Shown: positions 9,780-19,136, numbered from the stretch's first letter. The stretch: 64,000 nt of DNA from Macrostomum lignano (GCA_002269645.1 NIVC01000460.1:372001-436000), one strand, 5' to 3'. Program-made: numbers and translations. The notes: generated by a model from the sequence alone, not told the origin.

Positions 9780-10877
9780 CCATGAGAATCGGCCTCTAAT
9801 CTCCATGAGAATCGGCCTCTAATCTCCATGAGAATCGGCCTCTAATCTCCATGAGAATTGGCCTCTTAACTCCATGAGAATCGGCCTCTTAACTCCATGA
9901 GAATCAGCCTCTAATCTCCATGAGAATCGGCCTCTAATCTCCATGAGAATCGGCCTCTAATCTCCATGAGAATTGGCCTCTTAACTCCATGAGAATCGGC
10001 CTCTTAACTCCATGAGAATCAGCCTCTAATCTCCATGAGAATCGGCCTCTAATCTCCATGAGAATCGGCCTCTAATCTCCATGAGAATTGGCCTCTTAAC
10101 TCCATGAGAATCGGCCTCTTAACTCCATGAGAATCAGCCTCTAATCTCCATGAGAATCGGCCTCTAATCTCCATGAGAATCGGCCTCTAATCTCCATGAG
10201 AATTGGCCTCTTAACTCCATGAGAATCGGCCTCTAATCTCAATGAGAATCGGCCTCTAACCTCCATGAGAATCGGCCTCTAATCTCCATGAGAATCGCCC
10301 TCTAACCTCCATTAAAATCGCCCTCTAGTCTCCATGAGAATCGCCCTCTAACCTCCATTAAAATCGCCCTCTAGTCTCCATGAGAATCGGCCTCTAACCT
10401 CCATGAGAATCGGCCTCTAACCTCCATGAGAATCGGCCTCTAACCTCCATGAGAGTCGGCCGCTAATCTCCATGAGAATCGGCCTCTAACCTCCATTAAA
10501 ATCGCCTTCTAATCTCCATGAGAATCGGCCTCTAGCCTCCATTAAAATCGCCCTCTAGTCTCCATGAGAATCGCCCTCTAGTCTCCATGAGAATCGGCCT
10601 CTAACCTCCATGAGAATCGGCCTCTAAACTCCATGAGAATCGGCCTCTAAACTCCATGAGAATCGGTCTCTAACCTCCATGAGAATCTCTTTTTAAACTC
10701 CACGAGAATCACCTTCTCAACTCCATGAGAATCGCCTTCTCAACTCCACGAGAATCACCTTCTCAACTCCACGAGAATCACCTTCTCAACTCCATGAGAA
10801 TCGCCTTCTCAACTCCATGAGAATCGCCTTCTCAACTCCACGAGAATCACCTTCTCAACTCCATGAGAATCGCCCTC
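9780..10877. repeat. Minisatellite, ~23-bp unit (ctccatgagaatcggcctctaat), TTLL4 intron 3
   Basis: Tandem unit read directly. Confidence 0.95.
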
Positions 10878-11989: not shown

Positions 11990-12104
11990 AGCGCGCCGAG
12001 AAATGGCGCCATTGGATGAAAAAGAATCTCAACGAGTTGGCTTCAACTGCGTGAATCCTCAGTGCCGAATTTTCAGATTAAGTGCGACTTGGGATCAGAG
12101 CGTG

Positions 12105-12520
12105 AATGAGGATCAGGTGTGAATGGGGGATCAGTGGTGTGAATGGGGGATCAGTGGTGTGAATAGGGGATCAGTGGTGTGAATGGGGGATCAGTGGTGT
12201 GAATGGGGGATCAGTGGTGTGAATGGAGGATCAGTGGTGTGAATAGGGGATCAGTGGTGTGAATGGAGGATCAGTGGTGTGAATAGGGGATCAGTGGTGT
12301 GAATGGAGGATCAGTAGTGTGAATAGGGGATCAGTGGTGTGAATGGGGGATCAGGGTGTGAATGGAGGATCAGGGTGTGAATGGGGGATCAGGGTGTGAA
12401 TGGAGGATCAGGGTGTGAATGGGGGATCAGGGTGTGAATGGGGGATCAGGGTGTGAATGGGGGATCAGGGTGTGAATAGGGGATCAGGGTGTGAATAGGG
12501 GATCAGGGTGTGAATGGGGG
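12105..12520. repeat. Minisatellite, 18-20-bp unit (gtgtgaatgggggatcag(tg))
   Basis: Tandem unit read directly. Confidence 0.93.
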
Positions 12521-12790
12521 GTCAAACCAGATTTCGAAACGACCTTTTGCAGTTAGTATATTTTGACACAGAATTCAACTATGATTTGCGATGATTTCCT
12601 GTCTTTCGAAGGATCCAGTTATCTCGTGAATCTCAGCTTTCCCCTCGGCACTGTGAACAGATCCTAGCCGAGTTATGTGTGATGACCTTCTCTTGTATCT
12701 AAAGGGCTTTCAACCTCTTGTTATTTAAGAAAAGTATGCATTGCAGATTCCAAGTGAATTTTGCTGGTACACGTACGCTCAGATTTTATT

Positions 12791-12957
12791 GCAATCGTTA
12801 CTCTCTGAGTAAGGGGTGTTAGACGCGCCGGAGGGTGCCGCTGTACATATCGCTGTACTTTGGCGGGGGGTTGAGGTGTGGGGGTTGGCCACGCCAGCCA
12901 GCTTAAAGCCTCTGCACCCGGCCCGGCTTGGCTCCGCCGCCATTTCTCAATTTTTTT
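12791..12957 (+). repeat. Split direct repeat A1
   Basis: Identical to 16861-17027. Confidence 0.95.
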
Positions 12958-12971
12958 GCTCAGCCACCGCC

Positions 12972-14087
12972 ATGAGTGCCAGCCCAAAGCGACTAACCGT
13001 GCGCCAACTCAAGGCTGAGCTGCGAAACAGAGGCCTGCCTACTACGGGCCGCAAACAACAGCTTGCCAAGCGCTTGTCTACTGCACTCGGTTTAGAGCAA
13101 GCTGACGAAGACTTCAACAACTCCGAGATGACTTCTGCTCCGGACGCCGAAGACGGCATCGGCAGCGCGGGCGAGGCGCCTCCGGGGGCGGGGAGCGACC
13201 GTCTGGCTGCGTTGCGGCAGGAGGTGGAGCTGCTCGAACTGCAAGTCCTGGAAGGCCGTCGTCGTGATCTTCAGCAACAGCTTCACACTCAGCAGCGCTT
13301 GACGGCTCAGCCCCAGCCAGCATCATCATCAGGTGAGCATAACGCACATGCCAGTCTGCAGTTGCCCGAGGTTTTTGAATCTGGGATGAGGGAGGCGGCT
13401 CAGCTTCAGGCCGCTAATTGCCAGGCTCCGACTCGCAAGTTGCATCTCGTCAGAGACCACATCAAGCTAGCCAGAGGATCCGGCTCAGCCAGTCAGGAGC
13501 AGTTGATCGCCACTATGGAGAATGGCTCGCTCACATTCAGAAAGCAGGAGCCGAAGCTGTCTAGTATCTCTGCTGGTCAGTGGATCGCGGCCAACTCGAT
13601 CATCTTGCAAAAGCTGATCAAGGAAAAACTCCCGGTGGCTGCTGGAAGCACTGATGGTCTCCTGACTGACGTCCTTGGCTACCTTGACTACAATCGCAAG
13701 ATCGGAGAGCTGCTGGCTGCTGACTACCCAGAGTCCGTAATCTGGGAGTTTGACGAGGACTACCGGAGGCTGGTGGCGGAGTCGGGCATGGCGTGGGGTG
13801 AGGAGCCCCCTCAGTTGTACCACAAGCACCTCAACGCCCCCAGAAACCTGCGGTTCACGTTCGCTAAGCAGCCCAGCCAGCAGCAAATCCCGGCAGCAAC
13901 CAGGCCGATCTGTCTGCGCTTCAACTCCGAGTCCGGATGCAACCGCCAGAACTGCAAGTTCCGCCACGTCTGCAAAATCCAAGGCTGCCTGGCAGCGCAC
14001 CCGGCTCATGCTCACACGCAGTCGCCGCAGTCATTTCTCACCGGACAGCTGCCGGGTCACGTGACTGGTGCAAGTGCAAAAAACTGA
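12972..14087 (+). CDS. Gag-like ORF1 (371 aa): N-terminal SAP-like domain, coiled coil, DIRS/Ngaro gag core, C-terminal Cys/His zinc fingers
   Basis: ATG in context GCCACCGCCATG; LTVRQLKAELRNRGLPTTGRKQQLAKRL; WEFDEDYRR...W; CLRFNSESGCNRQNCKFRHVCKIQGCLAAH. Confidence 0.88.
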   Translation: MSASPKRLTVRQLKAELRNRGLPTTGRKQQLAKRLSTALGLEQADEDFNNSEMTSAPDAEDGIGSAGEAPPGAGSDRLAALRQEVELLELQVLEGRRRDLQQQLHTQQRLTAQPQPASSSGEHNAHASLQLPEVFESGMREAAQLQAANCQAPTRKLHLVRDHIKLARGSGSASQEQLIATMENGSLTFRKQEPKLSSISAGQWIAANSIILQKLIKEKLPVAAGSTDGLLTDVLGYLDYNRKIGELLAADYPESVIWEFDEDYRRLVAESGMAWGEEPPQLYHKHLNAPRNLRFTFAKQPSQQQIPAATRPICLRFNSESGCNRQNCKFRHVCKIQGCLAAHPAHAHTQSPQSFLTGQLPGHVTGASAKN

Positions 14088-15943
14088 TGCCATTTTATCC
14101 AGCTGACTGCTCTGCTTTTAATTCCGATTTTTCTGCTTTTACTTCTTCGCTGCCCATCTCGTCTGACCTGCAACCTGACGCCTGGAGTGCTCTGCTCAGC
14201 GACGACCCAGACCGCGACTTTCTGATGCAAGGCGTCGTCAACGGTTTCGCTCTCACCAATGCTGGCCAGCCACCTTTGACTTCGTCCAAGAACCACGCCT
14301 CCGCCCTGCTGCACCGCTCTGCTGTGGAAGCCCAGGTCGAGGAGGAGCTGCGCCTTGGGAGGTACATCCGGTGGAGCGGCCCGATCAAAATCAACCCCAT
14401 CGGTGCCCTTCCCAAGTCCGACGGGCGGGTCCGCCTGATCCATGACCTGTCCTATCCGACCGGCCAGTCTGTCAACGACTTCTACGACCAACAGAAGCAC
14501 ATCAAGTACTGCACTGTCCAGCAGCTGGTTCGTCATCTCCATCCGGGACACTACATGGCCAAAATTGATCTCAAAAGCGCCTACAGGTCCGTGCCAATCA
14601 GGCCTGCTGACTACCGGCTCGTCGGCCTCGCCTGGCGGTTTGACTCGGACAGCCAGGACAGTCTGCTCTGCGACACCAGGCTTCCCTTCGGCGCCAAAGC
14701 TGCTTGCGAAGTTTTTCACCGTCTTTCAGCCGCCGTTACCCGGCACATGCACCGGCTTGGCTTTTCTGCTACGGTGAACTACCTGGATGACTGGGCAGTC
14801 GCTGGGAAATCCGAGTTCGAGGCTTTCGCTGCTTTCAATTGCCTGCTGGACATCCTGCAGCGCCTCGGCTTTGCCATCAACTGGGACAAGGTTGTCAGAC
14901 CTACGCAATGCATCGACTTCCTTGGCGTGCGCATCAACACCGCTACCGGCACCAAGTCGCTGCCCGAGGAGAAAGCTCTCGAGACGACAAAGCTGCTGAC
15001 TCAAACCTGCTCGGAGACTCGGGTGCACATGCGCTCTGCTCAGAAGCTGATTGGCAAGCTTGGCTGGTTCTGTCAGATTGTCCCTCATGTCAGAGTCTTC
15101 CTGCGTCCGCTCTTCGACTGGCTGACAACTGCTGTTGACTGCAAGCTTTGGGTGACCGATGAGACCCGCGCCAACCTGTCCTGGTGGCTCAGAGCCCTGG
15201 CTTGGCTCCCCCCGGTGCCTTTGTGGCCGCGCTTTGATGAGGAGTTTGCCATGGAGACTGACAGCAGCCGGTCGGGCGCAGCCGCAGTCATCTGGGGTGC
15301 CGAGAGTTTCTGGAGTGTCATCGACTGGGAGCTGGACTGCGGTGGTGTGTTCAAGGATGTTCATATCAACTTCAAGGAGGCTCTGGCACCTTTGCTGATC
15401 ATCCTGCACCGTCGCTCTCAGCTAAAGAACTGCAAGATTGTCATCTACACCGACAGCACCGCTGCGGCTGGCATGATCAATCGACTGAGCTGTCGTGACC
15501 CGCGGTTCCTGCAGGTGTACCAGACTGTGGCTCTGCTGTGCATCAGGAACAGCATCAGTTTGGAGGCCTTTCACCTTCCTGGTCGCATGCAGATTTTTGC
15601 TGATGCCGCCTCCCGCATGTTTGCCTCGCAGTCTGAGCTCATTAACTTTTGCTGCCGCTACTACCGTACGCTCGTGATCTGCCCGCTTGAGTTCGCGTCG
15701 CACGCGCTCTCTGCCGCTTCCCAATCTCGCCTCCTTTTGCAGGTCGCCCTCGCCCTCCGGAGACGCCGCCCGCCCGCCGCGCTGTGTCTGCCAGACACCT
15801 GTGCCGCCTCGGCCTGGCGGAGAACTCCTGGCGATCCTACCTCAGCCAGCTGCGCTCCTGGGAAGCCTTCTGTGTTAGCGCAGGCCGCCCTTCATCTCCA
15901 GCTGACGGTGACCTGCTCTGCCGCTACATTGCGCACCTGGTGA
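14087..15943 (+). CDS. Reverse transcriptase / RNase H (ORF2; frame open from at least 13937, first ATG after the gag stop at 14087)
   Basis: PKSDGRVRLIHDLS, KIDLKSAYR, LPFG, YLDD; RNase H acidic residues in ETDSS, INFKEA, YTDS, ADAASR; no methyltransferase domain seen. Confidence 0.95.
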   Translation: MPFYPADCSAFNSDFSAFTSSLPISSDLQPDAWSALLSDDPDRDFLMQGVVNGFALTNAGQPPLTSSKNHASALLHRSAVEAQVEEELRLGRYIRWSGPIKINPIGALPKSDGRVRLIHDLSYPTGQSVNDFYDQQKHIKYCTVQQLVRHLHPGHYMAKIDLKSAYRSVPIRPADYRLVGLAWRFDSDSQDSLLCDTRLPFGAKAACEVFHRLSAAVTRHMHRLGFSATVNYLDDWAVAGKSEFEAFAAFNCLLDILQRLGFAINWDKVVRPTQCIDFLGVRINTATGTKSLPEEKALETTKLLTQTCSETRVHMRSAQKLIGKLGWFCQIVPHVRVFLRPLFDWLTTAVDCKLWVTDETRANLSWWLRALAWLPPVPLWPRFDEEFAMETDSSRSGAAAVIWGAESFWSVIDWELDCGGVFKDVHINFKEALAPLLIILHRRSQLKNCKIVIYTDSTAAAGMINRLSCRDPRFLQVYQTVALLCIRNSISLEAFHLPGRMQIFADAASRMFASQSELINFCCRYYRTLVICPLEFASHALSAASQSRLLLQVALALRRRRPPAALCLPDTCAASAWRRTPGDPTSASCAPGKPSVLAQAALHLQLTVTCSAATLRTW

Positions 15944-16740
15944 GCACCCGGCTCCGGTCTTTCTCTAGCCTCCGATCCTACATCCATGCCGTCTCTTTTC
16001 TGCACCAAGCCACCGGCGCCCCCGACCCAGCGAAAGACTTCACCGTGCAGCTGGCCCTTCGCGGCGCCAAACGTCATCTCGGCCTGCGATGCAAACAGGC
16101 GAAGCCGCTGACCATCGAGCACCTCAAGAGCATCCATCAGCAGCTCCCGCGCTCCATCTCAAGCGCAGATCTCAGGGCCGCCTTCTGGGCGGCTCTTCTG
16201 GTGGGCTGGTGGGGCATGTTGCGCCTTGGCGACTTCCTATCGACCCGCGGCAGCCGCTCTGTCTCACGGGCCTGCCTGTCGGCTTCACCTGGCTGCTGGA
16301 AGTTGACCCTCCCTAAGTCCAAGACCAACCAGTTCGGGTCGACGCCGCATGTCGTTCTTCTGCCACCTGTTCAAGAGTCACCGCTCTGCCCTGTGCGCGC
16401 TCTACTGTCTCACCTGCACCTGTCACCAGCCAGCGACCCAAGGGCGCCGTTCTTTGGCTACGGCCACGGAGGCGAGCTCTCAGCCAGCCAGTTCATCAGC
16501 TGTCTTCGTGCGTGTCTGGCTGCGTGCGGCCTTCCAGCTGCTGGTTTCTCCGGCCACAGCATCCGGCGTGGGGGTGCCAGCTTCTGCCATCAAATCGGCT
16601 TGTCAGAATCAGACGTTCGGGCTCTTGGGGGCTGGAGATCGGACGCTGTTCTCCGCTACTTTTCTGCCAGCTCTGCCCTGTCGCGCCGCCAGCGCTCTGC
16701 TTCTTTCATGGCTTCGCAGCTGCAGGCTGCGTCCACCTGA
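15743..16740 (+). CDS. Tyrosine recombinase (ORF3); no in-frame ATG before 16216, start placed at the candidate splice acceptor
   Basis: Catalytic set intact: MLR(LGDF), KSKTNQ, HSIRRGGA, GGWRSD, LRY; N-terminal LAENSWRSY core-binding region. Frame open from 15691. 5' boundary is inferred. Confidence 0.9.
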
Positions 16741-16783
16741 CTGCCTTCCCGCTTTTACTCCTTCCCTTCCCCATCATTGGGGT

Positions 16784-16860
16784 TGGGATCCGCTTTCTCG
16801 GCCGCTGCCTGCTTTTCGCAACTGACTTTGTCTCGTTTGGCTCCTTCCGGCGTGTTTAAT
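16784..16860 (+). repeat. Split direct repeat B1
   Basis: Identical to 17098-17174; abuts A2. Confidence 0.95.
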
Positions 16861-17027
16861 GCAATCGTTACTCTCTGAGTAAGGGGTGTTAGACGCGCCG
16901 GAGGGTGCCGCTGTACATATCGCTGTACTTTGGCGGGGGGTTGAGGTGTGGGGGTTGGCCACGCCAGCCAGCTTAAAGCCTCTGCACCCGGCCCGGCTTG
17001 GCTCCGCCGCCATTTCTCAATTTTTTT
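16861..17027 (+). repeat. Split direct repeat A2
   Basis: Identical to 12791-12957. Confidence 0.95.
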
Positions 17028-17070
17028 TATCTTCTTTTTACAAACCAGTAAATATTAACTCATTTAAACT

Positions 17071-17080
17071 AATAAATAAA
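17071..17080 (+). terminator. Candidate poly(A) signal of the retrotransposon (overlapping AATAAA hexamers) in the A2-B2 spacer
   Basis: aataaataaa in a 70-bp AT-rich spacer. Confidence 0.45.
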
Positions 17081-17097
17081 CGCTTCGCTTGATCCAC

Positions 17098-17174
17098 TGG
17101 GATCCGCTTTCTCGGCCGCTGCCTGCTTTTCGCAACTGACTTTGTCTCGTTTGGCTCCTTCCGGCGTGTTTAAT
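17098..17174 (+). repeat. Split direct repeat B2 (3' terminus)
   Basis: Identical to 16784-16860. Confidence 0.95.
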
Positions 17175-17519
17175 GAATATTTATAACTGTTCTTGCATCG
17201 AATTATGTGATTGATATTTTCTCTTCTTGTTTTCCACTTGAGATAGCTTTTACTATATATGAAAGGTATGAGATAATGCTTTAAACTTTTTTTGGAAAAT
17301 AAATTGACGAACTTATAAAAAAGAAGTGCACAATTTACTTACTCAATTAAGAGATAATTAATAATTGTAATAAAAAACAACCCAGGATTTGACATGAACA
17401 TTTGATTATATTTGAAGTAAACGCCATGGGTAACTATGCCTCTATTTTAGTAAGTATTCGGCTCGTCACCTAATTGGCGCTTTGCTTATATAAGCTATAG
17501 GTTGCGAGAGGCTTCAGAA

Positions 17520-18350
17520 TAATTTGGATCCTTGTCTGAGGATTTGGGATATTTTGGATCGGTAACCGAGGATTTAAGATATTTGGAATCACTATATCTG
17601 AGGATTTGAGATATTTGGAATCGCTATCTGAGGATTTGGGATATTTGGGACCGCTGACTCAGGATTCGGGACATCTAGGATCGCTATCTGAGGATTTGGA
17701 ATATTTGGGATTGCTACGAGTTAACTGAGGATTTGGGATATTTGGGATCGCTATCTGAGGATTCGGGATATTTGGGATCGCTATCTGAGGATTCGGGATA
17801 TTTGGGATCGCTATCTGAGGATTCGGGATATTTGGGATCGCTATCTGAGGATTTGGGATATTTGGGATCGCTATCTGAGGATTTGGGATCGCTATCTGAG
17901 GATTTGGGATATTTGGGATCGCTATCTGAGGATTCGGGATATTTGGAATCGCTATCTGAGGATTTGGGATATTTGGGATCGCTATCTGAGGATTTGGGAT
18001 CGCTATCTGAGGATTCGGGATATTTGGGATCGCTATCTGAGGATTCGGGATATTTGGGATCGCTATCTGAGGATTTGGGATATTTGGGATCGCTATCTGA
18101 GGATTAGGGATATTTGGGATCGCTATCTGAGGATTCGGGATATTTGGAATCGTTATCTGAGGATTTGGGATATTTGGGATCGCTATCTGAGGATTTGGGA
18201 TCGCTATCTGAGGATTCGGGATATTTGGGATCGCTATCTGAGGATTTGGGATATTTGGGATCGCTATCTGAGGATTTGGGATCGCTATCTGAGGATTAGG
18301 GATATTTGGGATCGCTATTTGAGGATTCGGGATTGCTAACCGAGAAGTTA
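17520..18350. repeat. Minisatellite, 30/21-bp units (gggatatttgggatcgctatctgaggattt)
   Basis: Read directly; reverse complement of the 32040-32590 array. Confidence 0.95.
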
Positions 18351-18617: not shown

Positions 18618-19136
18618 TCACAGATCCAGGACGCCCGAATCGGCAGAGCTGGCCTTCAAGCCGGCATTTGGAGGCGGCGGCGAGATCAAACGGACAGCCA
18701 GCCGGCCGCTGTTCCACGGAGCCTGTAGCAGCAGCGGCCGGAAGTCCTGCGGCAGCGGCCTCTCGACGCCTTCGTCGGTGGCCACCACGAGCTCGTAGGC
18801 GGAGGCCGGCGGCGAGTCCAGGCCGGCGGTTTCCACTGCCAGCCGGCAGACGTCGCGAGCTCGAGTCGTCTGGCTAAGCGACAGAGCCAGTTCGAGGTTG
18901 TCGAATTGGACTCGGAAACTGCGAGACTGTGGCTCGGCAGCTGGAGGCGGGGGAGGCGGTTGCGCGGGTTTCAATGTGGCTACTTGCAGTAGCGAGCTGA
19001 GCGAAATGCAGCACCGACTGCCGGCCCGCCTGGAGTCGGCGATGGCGTCGGCGGTCCAGCCAGCTGCCCGGGTCATGGCCTCGGCCTGGGCCTGCAGCGC
19101 CTGGATGAGCAGGTTTAGAGTGTACAATTGTCTGCG
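18618..19136 (-). CDS. ANKFN1: ANKFN1/wide-awake-like, last exon (Ras-association-like domain)
   Basis: ctctag acceptor, phase 0; GWTADAIADSR motif; FRVQFD...TTRARDVCRLAVETAG...YELVV...ERPL ubiquitin-fold RA pattern; TGA. Confidence 0.72.
   Translation of the reverse strand, partial: RRQLYTLNLLIQALQAQAEAMTRAAGWTADAIADSRRAGSRCCISLSSLLQVATLKPAQPPPPPPAAEPQSRSFRVQFDNLELALSLSQTTRARDVCRLAVETAGLDSPPASAYELVVATDEGVERPLPQDFRPLLLQAPWNSGRLAVRLISPPPPNAGLKASSADSGVLDL

Follow-up and report, generated by a model that had tools for sequence, protein, structure and literature searches.

Predicted splicing of the Gag N-terminus to the tyrosine recombinase in a Ngaro-type retrotransposon of Macrostomum lignano

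A 64,000-nucleotide stretch of Macrostomum lignano DNA (GCA_002269645.1 NIVC01000460.1:372001-436000), hereafter the window, contains at positions 12785–17175 a complete, intact tyrosine recombinase (YR) retrotransposon that is present in multiple copies. We consider it highly probable, from its sequence and that of its relatives, that this element makes its YR from a spliced RNA, in which the first 120 gag codons, encoding a SAP domain, a linker and a predicted coiled coil, are joined in frame to the start of the YR. A spliced Gag(1–120)-YR had been proposed in a first-pass annotation of the window; it is supported by phase-1 splice sites conserved across families and by an intronless genomic copy of the element, and its junction was not seen in contigs of sequencing runs that we guessed to be RNA.

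Predicted splice sites, fused frame and an intronless copy

All features of the element lie on the + strand. The YR open reading frame (ORF) spans 15691–16740, overlapping the end of pol, and its only ATGs are at 16216 and 16708. The first-pass annotation had called this frame effectively ATG-less, and our analysis bears this out: ATG 16216 stands two codons ahead of the catalytic Arg, so that a start there would lose the whole core-binding domain, and the pol/YR overlap has no canonical slippery heptamer, the two present in 13800–16000 lying at 14078 and 14804.

Two splice sites would link this frame to the start of gag. The 5' splice site, CAG/GTGAGC (13330–13338, cut 13332/13333), is in phase 1 and is the best consensus match in gag, agreeing at 8/9 positions and ranking top of 47 GTs. 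The 3' splice site, a pyrimidine tract followed by CAG/G (15725–15743, cut 15742/15743), is in phase 1 to the YR frame and ranks second of the 79 YAG sites in pol and YR. The predicted alternative intron between them (13333–15742, 2410 nt) has GT-AG ends in consensus context, conserved in position and phase across families, and takes in what remains of gag and almost the whole of pol. Its removal would join 361 coding nt of exon 1, counted from the Gag ATG (12972–13332; 120 codons plus 1 nt, common to Gag and the predicted fusion), to the coding part of exon 2 (15743–16740), which holds the whole Cre-like YR, with its core-binding domain and its catalytic domain (catalytic Arg codon 16222–16224). 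The joined SAP-YR frame is open over 452 aa; both cuts, the phase, the intron length and the size of the product were as the first-pass annotation had given them. A pol acceptor for this donor, the phase-1 CAG at 14102, was also considered but did not hold across families, an equivalent just past the gag stop occurring in only 2/10 of them.

Support that the first-pass annotation had not foreseen came from an intronless copy at a separate site. In the assembly of the host's own genome (G000), locus L031 on contig C3137 runs A1, exon 1, exon 2, B1, A2, B2 (A and B being the split direct repeats of the element), lacks window 13333–15742 to the base, and carries an open 452-aa SAP-YR ORF. The 24-mer across its junction occurs once in G000 at up to 2 mismatches (control, 0). 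For both halves of L031 the closest locus is L007 (99.6% identity; 2 and 4 mismatches), whose donor variant, GTAAGC, is the stronger one; because L007 retains the intron and has other flanks, L031 is a separate insertion. We infer that it arose by reverse transcription of spliced RNA with the terminal repeats kept, which is plausible given that a spliced, marked DIRS-1 RNA was retrotransposed and that DIRS-1 reverse transcriptase (RT) can act in trans, as described in excerpts of PMC7192593. The 43 loci of the window family have 20 distinct internal deletions, as compared to 8384 possible pairs with at least 5 nt of homology, which puts the chance of an exact intron loss by microhomology deletion at ~0.002 (20/8384).

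L007 and L009 (G000 contigs C2322 and C150), the copies closest to L031, have the donor GTAAGC together with a 38-nt pol deletion, and their lineage looks non-autonomous. Candidate gag/YR neighbours (L108–L111) and copies with deletions, among them L079, L091 and L073, were rejected as intronless copies, their deletions being of other kinds without GT-AG joins. In L079 (G000 contig C462, family D) the T-run that closes A1 meets the T-run of the acceptor, with gag and pol deleted; we attribute this YR-only element to microhomology between the two T-runs.

Sister families and metagenome relatives

From 130 YR matches in the same genome we fetched 40 loci. Ten families, each represented by one locus, were compared; they are not fully independent: YR identity among them is mostly 29–49% and gag identity mostly 26–44%, with one pair at 70% in each case. 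A Gly-Glu after the coiled coil is aligned in 9/9 gags, and there a donor G/GTGAG[C/T] stands in phase 1 in 9/9 families, outside any ORF overlap; the same spelling is found at 0/15 other Gly-Glu pairs (Fisher p 7.6e-7). By simple match count this donor is the top one in 7/9 gags, the exceptions being G and H, and by a weight matrix it is the top one in 9/9 tested (K included, E left out). On the acceptor side, [ATS]G[RP] precedes the YR domain in 10/10 families, and a pyrimidine tract with CAG/G in phase 1 is present in 10/10, ranking first among YAGs in 7 families, second in 2 and eighth in 1. Family K (L112), fetched later as a held-out case, has both sites in phase 1, which brings the phase-1 count to 10/10 families for the donor and 11/11 for the acceptor. 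A search for the acceptor motif found the site in 7/10 loci; the other three (L104, L113, L122) appear to be copies that have decayed or lost their frame. Within the window family, GT is present in all 30 donor-covering loci and CAG in all acceptor-covering loci, some copies having been fetched twice.

A metagenome scan for relatives from other hosts gave 80 loci, 77 of which aligned to the YR N-terminus and 75 of which had 200 nt upstream. These were scanned blind from −120 to +30 relative to the YR start, the best pyrimidine-tract YAG being taken; the procedure picked the correct site in 11/11 own-genome families. The best acceptor was in phase 1 in 68/75 loci, in phase 0 in 4 and in phase 2 in 3, and control windows were even across phases (123/127/134). 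Nearly all phase-1 acceptors (65 of 68) lay within −21..+3 of the YR start. After clustering, the phase-1 counts were 27/30 (50% identity, p 2e-10), 43/48 and 51/56, and the splice model appears to hold in at least 27/30 divergent metagenome lineages. The first-pass annotation had named conservation of both sites and their phase in related families as a check on splicing, and this conservation is seen in sister families and metagenome relatives alike.

The acceptor signal tracks the YR frame and not pol coding, since the YAG was a pol codon in only 16 of the 55 phase-1 loci with pol mapped (pol was in another frame in 20 and had ended in 19) and since the acceptor was TAG in 10/68 phase-1 loci. 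These counts bear on the possibility that a second −1 frameshift on unspliced RNA yields the YR as part of a polyprotein (Gag-Pol-YR or Pol-YR), with a slippery pyrimidine tract and with L031 as a chance microhomology deletion. In this host the YR does lie in the −1 frame relative to pol, and T TTT TTA is found at the frame start in family I and, in families D and F, 9–15 nt ahead of the acceptor. The end of gag already seems to be a place where the element uses a −1 shift, and the contigs described below show the unspliced form only. However, the heptamer is missing in 8/11 families, the window's own included, and a shift from pol at this site does not fit the metagenome loci in which pol stops before it (19/55) or is in another frame (20/55). 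A second frameshift would also leave the conserved gag donor and the exact deletion unexplained, and we judge it very unlikely. In two metagenome loci, L141 and L145, the YR frame is open for 187–462 codons upstream, partly in frame with pol, and the phase-1 acceptor is still there.

The front module of the predicted fusion is less uniform. SAP matches were found in all 8 further own-genome gags, 6 of them above the curated cut-off, as compared to 0/14 metagenome gags scanned, two of which gave weak SAM matches. The SAP-equipped integrase of the first-pass annotation would apply to the families of this host and not to the metagenome relatives; SAP is specific to the former, and the general pattern is a variable Gag N-terminal module plus YR. 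With moderate confidence, we suggest that ORF3, the YR ORF, is across a large, animal-wide Ngaro-like clade an ancient alternative last exon of gag, so that every active integrase would be a fusion to the Gag N-terminus, its front module (SAP here, SAM-like elsewhere) swapped between lineages and either loading the particle or steering the choice of target. If this is true, the rate of splicing would set the rate of transposition, and non-autonomous copies that donate recombinase would arise from spliced RNAs.

Metagenome donors, transcripts and gene models

A phase-1 donor (score at least 7) lies in the 60 codons before the gag core in 14/17 metagenome gags, as compared to 5/79 other windows; synonymous shuffles gave 3.1 donors expected against the 14 found in 17 gags, and the clustered count was 7/9 (p 1e-4). 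Several points weigh against the splice reading, and the first concerns this test: its codon range and score were chosen after the output of a phase-only test, and 5 of the 22 ORFs were left out because they lacked a credible core motif. Phase alone gave no significant result for the metagenome donors (18/22 versus 14.7 expected, p 0.08), because phase 1 is favoured by stops and Gly codons. In the host's own genome the acceptor CAG doubles as a pol Gln codon in 8/10 families, the remaining two being one without mapped pol and one in which pol ends earlier. The exact intron-loss junction was seen only once in G000, in L031, and the donor and acceptor have 5 nt (CAGGT) in common, so that a template switch or a repair deletion could give an identical junction. 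Intronless copies were absent among the donor-spanning matches of families D (22), B (19), H (38), E (24) and C (36), a search that did not take in F, G, I, J and K.

Transcript evidence belongs on the same side. The element was found in 18 sequencing runs, none on record as RNA, and out of 24 runs listed we examined the Logan contigs of four (X1, X2, X9 and X15, from 4 studies), whose RNA nature is a guess. The contigs of all 4 runs cover the element fully and are near-identical to the window copy. The joint from 13332 to 15743 was absent from the contigs of 4/4 runs, which are unbroken across both sites, and such contigs drop rare variants and so show presence, not absence. The spliced form is probably not dominant in these runs. 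In a public Macrostomum lignano gene model, UniRef A0A1I8J2F9, a family C gag is joined to YR at the predicted point; it is probably an intron call, since G000 yielded no copy of family C without the intron, and it may be a pure prediction from identical splice signals.

In-frame ATGs also count against splicing, one lying upstream of the acceptor in family B and others near the YR start in 27/75 metagenome loci. Together with in-frame GTG, CTG and ACG codons near the start of the YR domain, they would fit a YR whose translation begins internally, at GTG 15784, at ATG 16216 or at another near-cognate codon, whether the RNA is separate or full-length. A nearby ATG is nevertheless missing in 48/75 metagenome loci, no start codon position is conserved over the 11 families, and ATG 16216 omits the core-binding domain. 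Internal initiation, which leaves the phase-locked donor and acceptor unexplained, strikes us as extremely unlikely.

Other public gene models raise the question of which donor the acceptor is joined to: P0007 joins it to a donor in pol, and P0006 starts at exon 2. With the further phase-1 gag donor at 13576, these models would be compatible with a real acceptor whose main partner is a 5' leader exon, the second gag donor or a host trans-spliced leader, the SAP fusion being minor. The sole captured spliced copy, L031, uses the 13332 donor, however, and that donor is the conserved one; a trans-spliced leader, moreover, would depend on an ATG early in exon 2, where there is none, unless the leader supplied one. 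We regard another main donor as exceedingly improbable and retain splicing from 13332.

Searches with proteins added a single lead. The RefSeq YR models of a limpet, a scallop and a hemichordate have 140–180 extra N-terminal residues; the limpet model P0018 matched the gag N-terminal profile weakly (E 0.003, no reversed decoy match), and we treat this as a lead only. Neither the hemichordate nor the scallop model matched that profile, and when the N-terminal extensions of the limpet and hemichordate proteins were used as queries, they matched only themselves. With the 452-aa protein as query, a word-indexed search returned 5 protein matches, all YR-only, and the nearest ESM Atlas clusters were eukaryotic YR proteins in which SAP was not shown. 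A UniRef protein labelled Macrostomum lignano is 95% identical to the YR of the element.

SAP domains bind AT-rich DNA. In the mechanism that we propose, unspliced RNA would give Gag from 12972 and Gag-Pol by −1 frameshift, and would be the template for copying, while spliced RNA would give the 452-aa Gag(1–120)-YR, acting as integrase. The N-terminus common to both products (SAP plus coiled coil) may load YR into the Gag/cDNA particle or may bind AT-rich DNA. Since spliced RNA would keep both terminal repeats, it could be mobilised in trans. The first-pass annotation's suggestion that the scheme could serve targeted recombinase engineering is speculative.

Retroviral env and foamy-virus pol come from spliced RNAs. 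Ty1/Copia elements make a spliced subgenomic gag RNA, according to excerpts of PMC5580714 and PMC3735527. As in these long terminal repeat (LTR) elements and retroviruses, a balance of spliced and unspliced RNA would here give several proteins, with the unspliced RNA also serving as genome. Their splicing gives Gag, Env or Pol, and integrase lies within Pol; by contrast, the integrating enzyme here would be the spliced product, bearing the Gag N-terminus, and the spliced RNA is proposed to be re-insertable with all terminal repeats kept. If true, this would be a case with integrase, rather than Env or Gag, as the spliced product.

For Ngaro elements, excerpts of PMC8547959, PMC9210276 and PMC3783388 describe the YR as a separate ORF3 overlapping pol or as 'frameshifted', and the string 'splic' occurs nowhere in these three texts. 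The present element resembles the Ngaro superfamily (order DIRS), as far as those excerpts describe it, in its A1-ORFs-B1A2B2 layout, its overlapping YR ORF, its His-x-x-Arg and Tyr and the absence of a detected methyltransferase, and differs in that gag probably has the YR as an alternative 3' exon. ALOG-containing DIRS1-like retroposons (excerpts of PMC3537659) likewise have a YR recombinase with extra N-terminal domains; these are described there as part of the recombinase protein, and neither 'splic' nor 'SAP' appears in that text. The closest solved structure is Cre (PDB 1xns and 7rhz, among others; E ~1e-19): the part with the core-binding and catalytic domains begins right after the acceptor, and the YR profile aligns to Cre from residue 33, but Cre starts from a codon of its own and lacks a SAP/coiled-coil extension.

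Full-text searches of the literature yielded no description of splice-based YR expression, the founding Ngaro paper, the 2015 review and Repbase lying outside the search, and the excerpts of PMC7192593, PMC9341512, PMC4157794, PMC6681497, PMC4495291, PMC9940879, PMC9210276, PMC8547959, PMC3537659, PMC3212892, PMC3783388, PMC5633606 and PMC5890265 contain none. A prior mention in the founding paper, the review or Repbase is conceivable. How an overlapping, ATG-less YR ORF is expressed is not addressed in the excerpts searched, and this is exactly the question that the splice model would answer. If it is true, the annotated recombinase changes, the real protein being ~110–230 residues longer, which matters for the biochemistry and structure of eukaryotic Cre-like integrases and for repeat annotation.

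Element architecture, Gag-Pol expression and surroundings

The element is bounded by split direct repeats: A1 (12785–12957, 173 nt, 99.4% identical to A2), whose first 7 nt are the target/crossover core; B1 (16784–16861, 78 nt, 100% identical to the other B repeat); A2 (16855–17027), the B1/A2 junction being the predicted circle junction; and B2 (17098–17175), with AATAAA at 17071 and 17075 ahead of it. G000 contains at least 50 matches to the element, 17 of them near full length at 92–100% identity; 37/214 candidates were scored, so that these counts are lower bounds. Gag (12972–14087, 371 aa) comprises SAP, an acidic linker, the predicted coiled coil, the gag core and a C-terminal Cys/His finger-like motif, and pol (14078–15943, −1 frame to gag) encodes RT (RVT_1 E 3e-11) and a weakly matched RNase H (E 0.026). 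In families B, I and J pol ends 17–21 codons past the acceptor. In the YR alignment R, H, W and Y are invariant, RR is near-invariant and H-x-x-R is kept.

The SAP domain of exon 1, put forward by the first-pass annotation, is clear (12987–13082, Gag residues 6–37, PF02037 E 6.9e-11). The coiled coil named with it rests on a sequence pattern and a single low-confidence predicted helix (residues 73–111), and single-sequence structure prediction was uninformative (pLDDT 45).

We assign the element to the Ngaro type on repeat layout and domains, since it has the repeat order A1-ORFs-B1-A2-B2, the ORF order gag, RT/RNase H and YR overlapping the end of ORF2, the YR catalytic residues and, unlike DIRS-like and PAT-like elements, no methyltransferase match downstream of RNase H up to an E of 0.1. 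Of the DIRS1-like traits looked for (inverted terminal repeats, an internal complementary region and a methyltransferase), none was found, only direct repeats being seen.

The slippery heptamer A AAA AAC (14078–14087) lies directly before the gag stop, which overlaps an ATG at 14087. In 9/10 families gag ends in A AAA AAY followed by a stop, and the −1 frame runs on into pol without interruption; an in-frame heptamer lies near the gag stop in 8/17 metagenome gags; a strong hairpin downstream of the heptamer was found in 3/10 families, the window's own not among them. Pol is likely made as Gag-Pol by −1 frameshift at 14078. The first-pass annotation's derivation of Gag and Pol from unspliced RNA is likely, and this frameshift is an addition to it. 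Reinitiation at ATG 14087 is a rival to the frameshift in the window element, which is without a strong hairpin. In L092, a family I copy, gag and pol are in one frame with a single TGA between them. A T-rich stretch with recurring TTTTAA follows the gag stop in most families (window 14088–14160 and equivalents), for which a frameshift stimulator and a coding motif are candidate roles.

Just upstream of the element, on the same strand, lie one or more exons of the tubulin-tyrosine-ligase family (PF03133, 10909–12120). The element may lie in the 3' untranslated region of that gene, and some of its RNA may be host read-through. A Ras-association domain exon (PF00788) lies downstream on the − strand (18618–19136), and there are long minisatellite arrays on the flanks of the exons and of the element (9800–10870, 12100–12520, 17500–18340 and from 19020 onward).

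In contigs from runs X9 and X15, position 12791 continues directly into DNA past the right end of the element, which corresponds to an empty allele and marks the window insertion as polymorphic and recent. The target core at this insertion (12785–12791, 17172–17200) is similar to the circle junction. Across 9 flanks (8 distinct), left flanks end in A[ATC]TG and right flanks start with TTTAA, which resembles the B1/A2 junction and would be consistent with integration by recombination at such a target. At L068/L093, L070/L096 and L078, elements of different families abut, one ending where the next starts, which suggests insertion at or beside the ends of existing elements.

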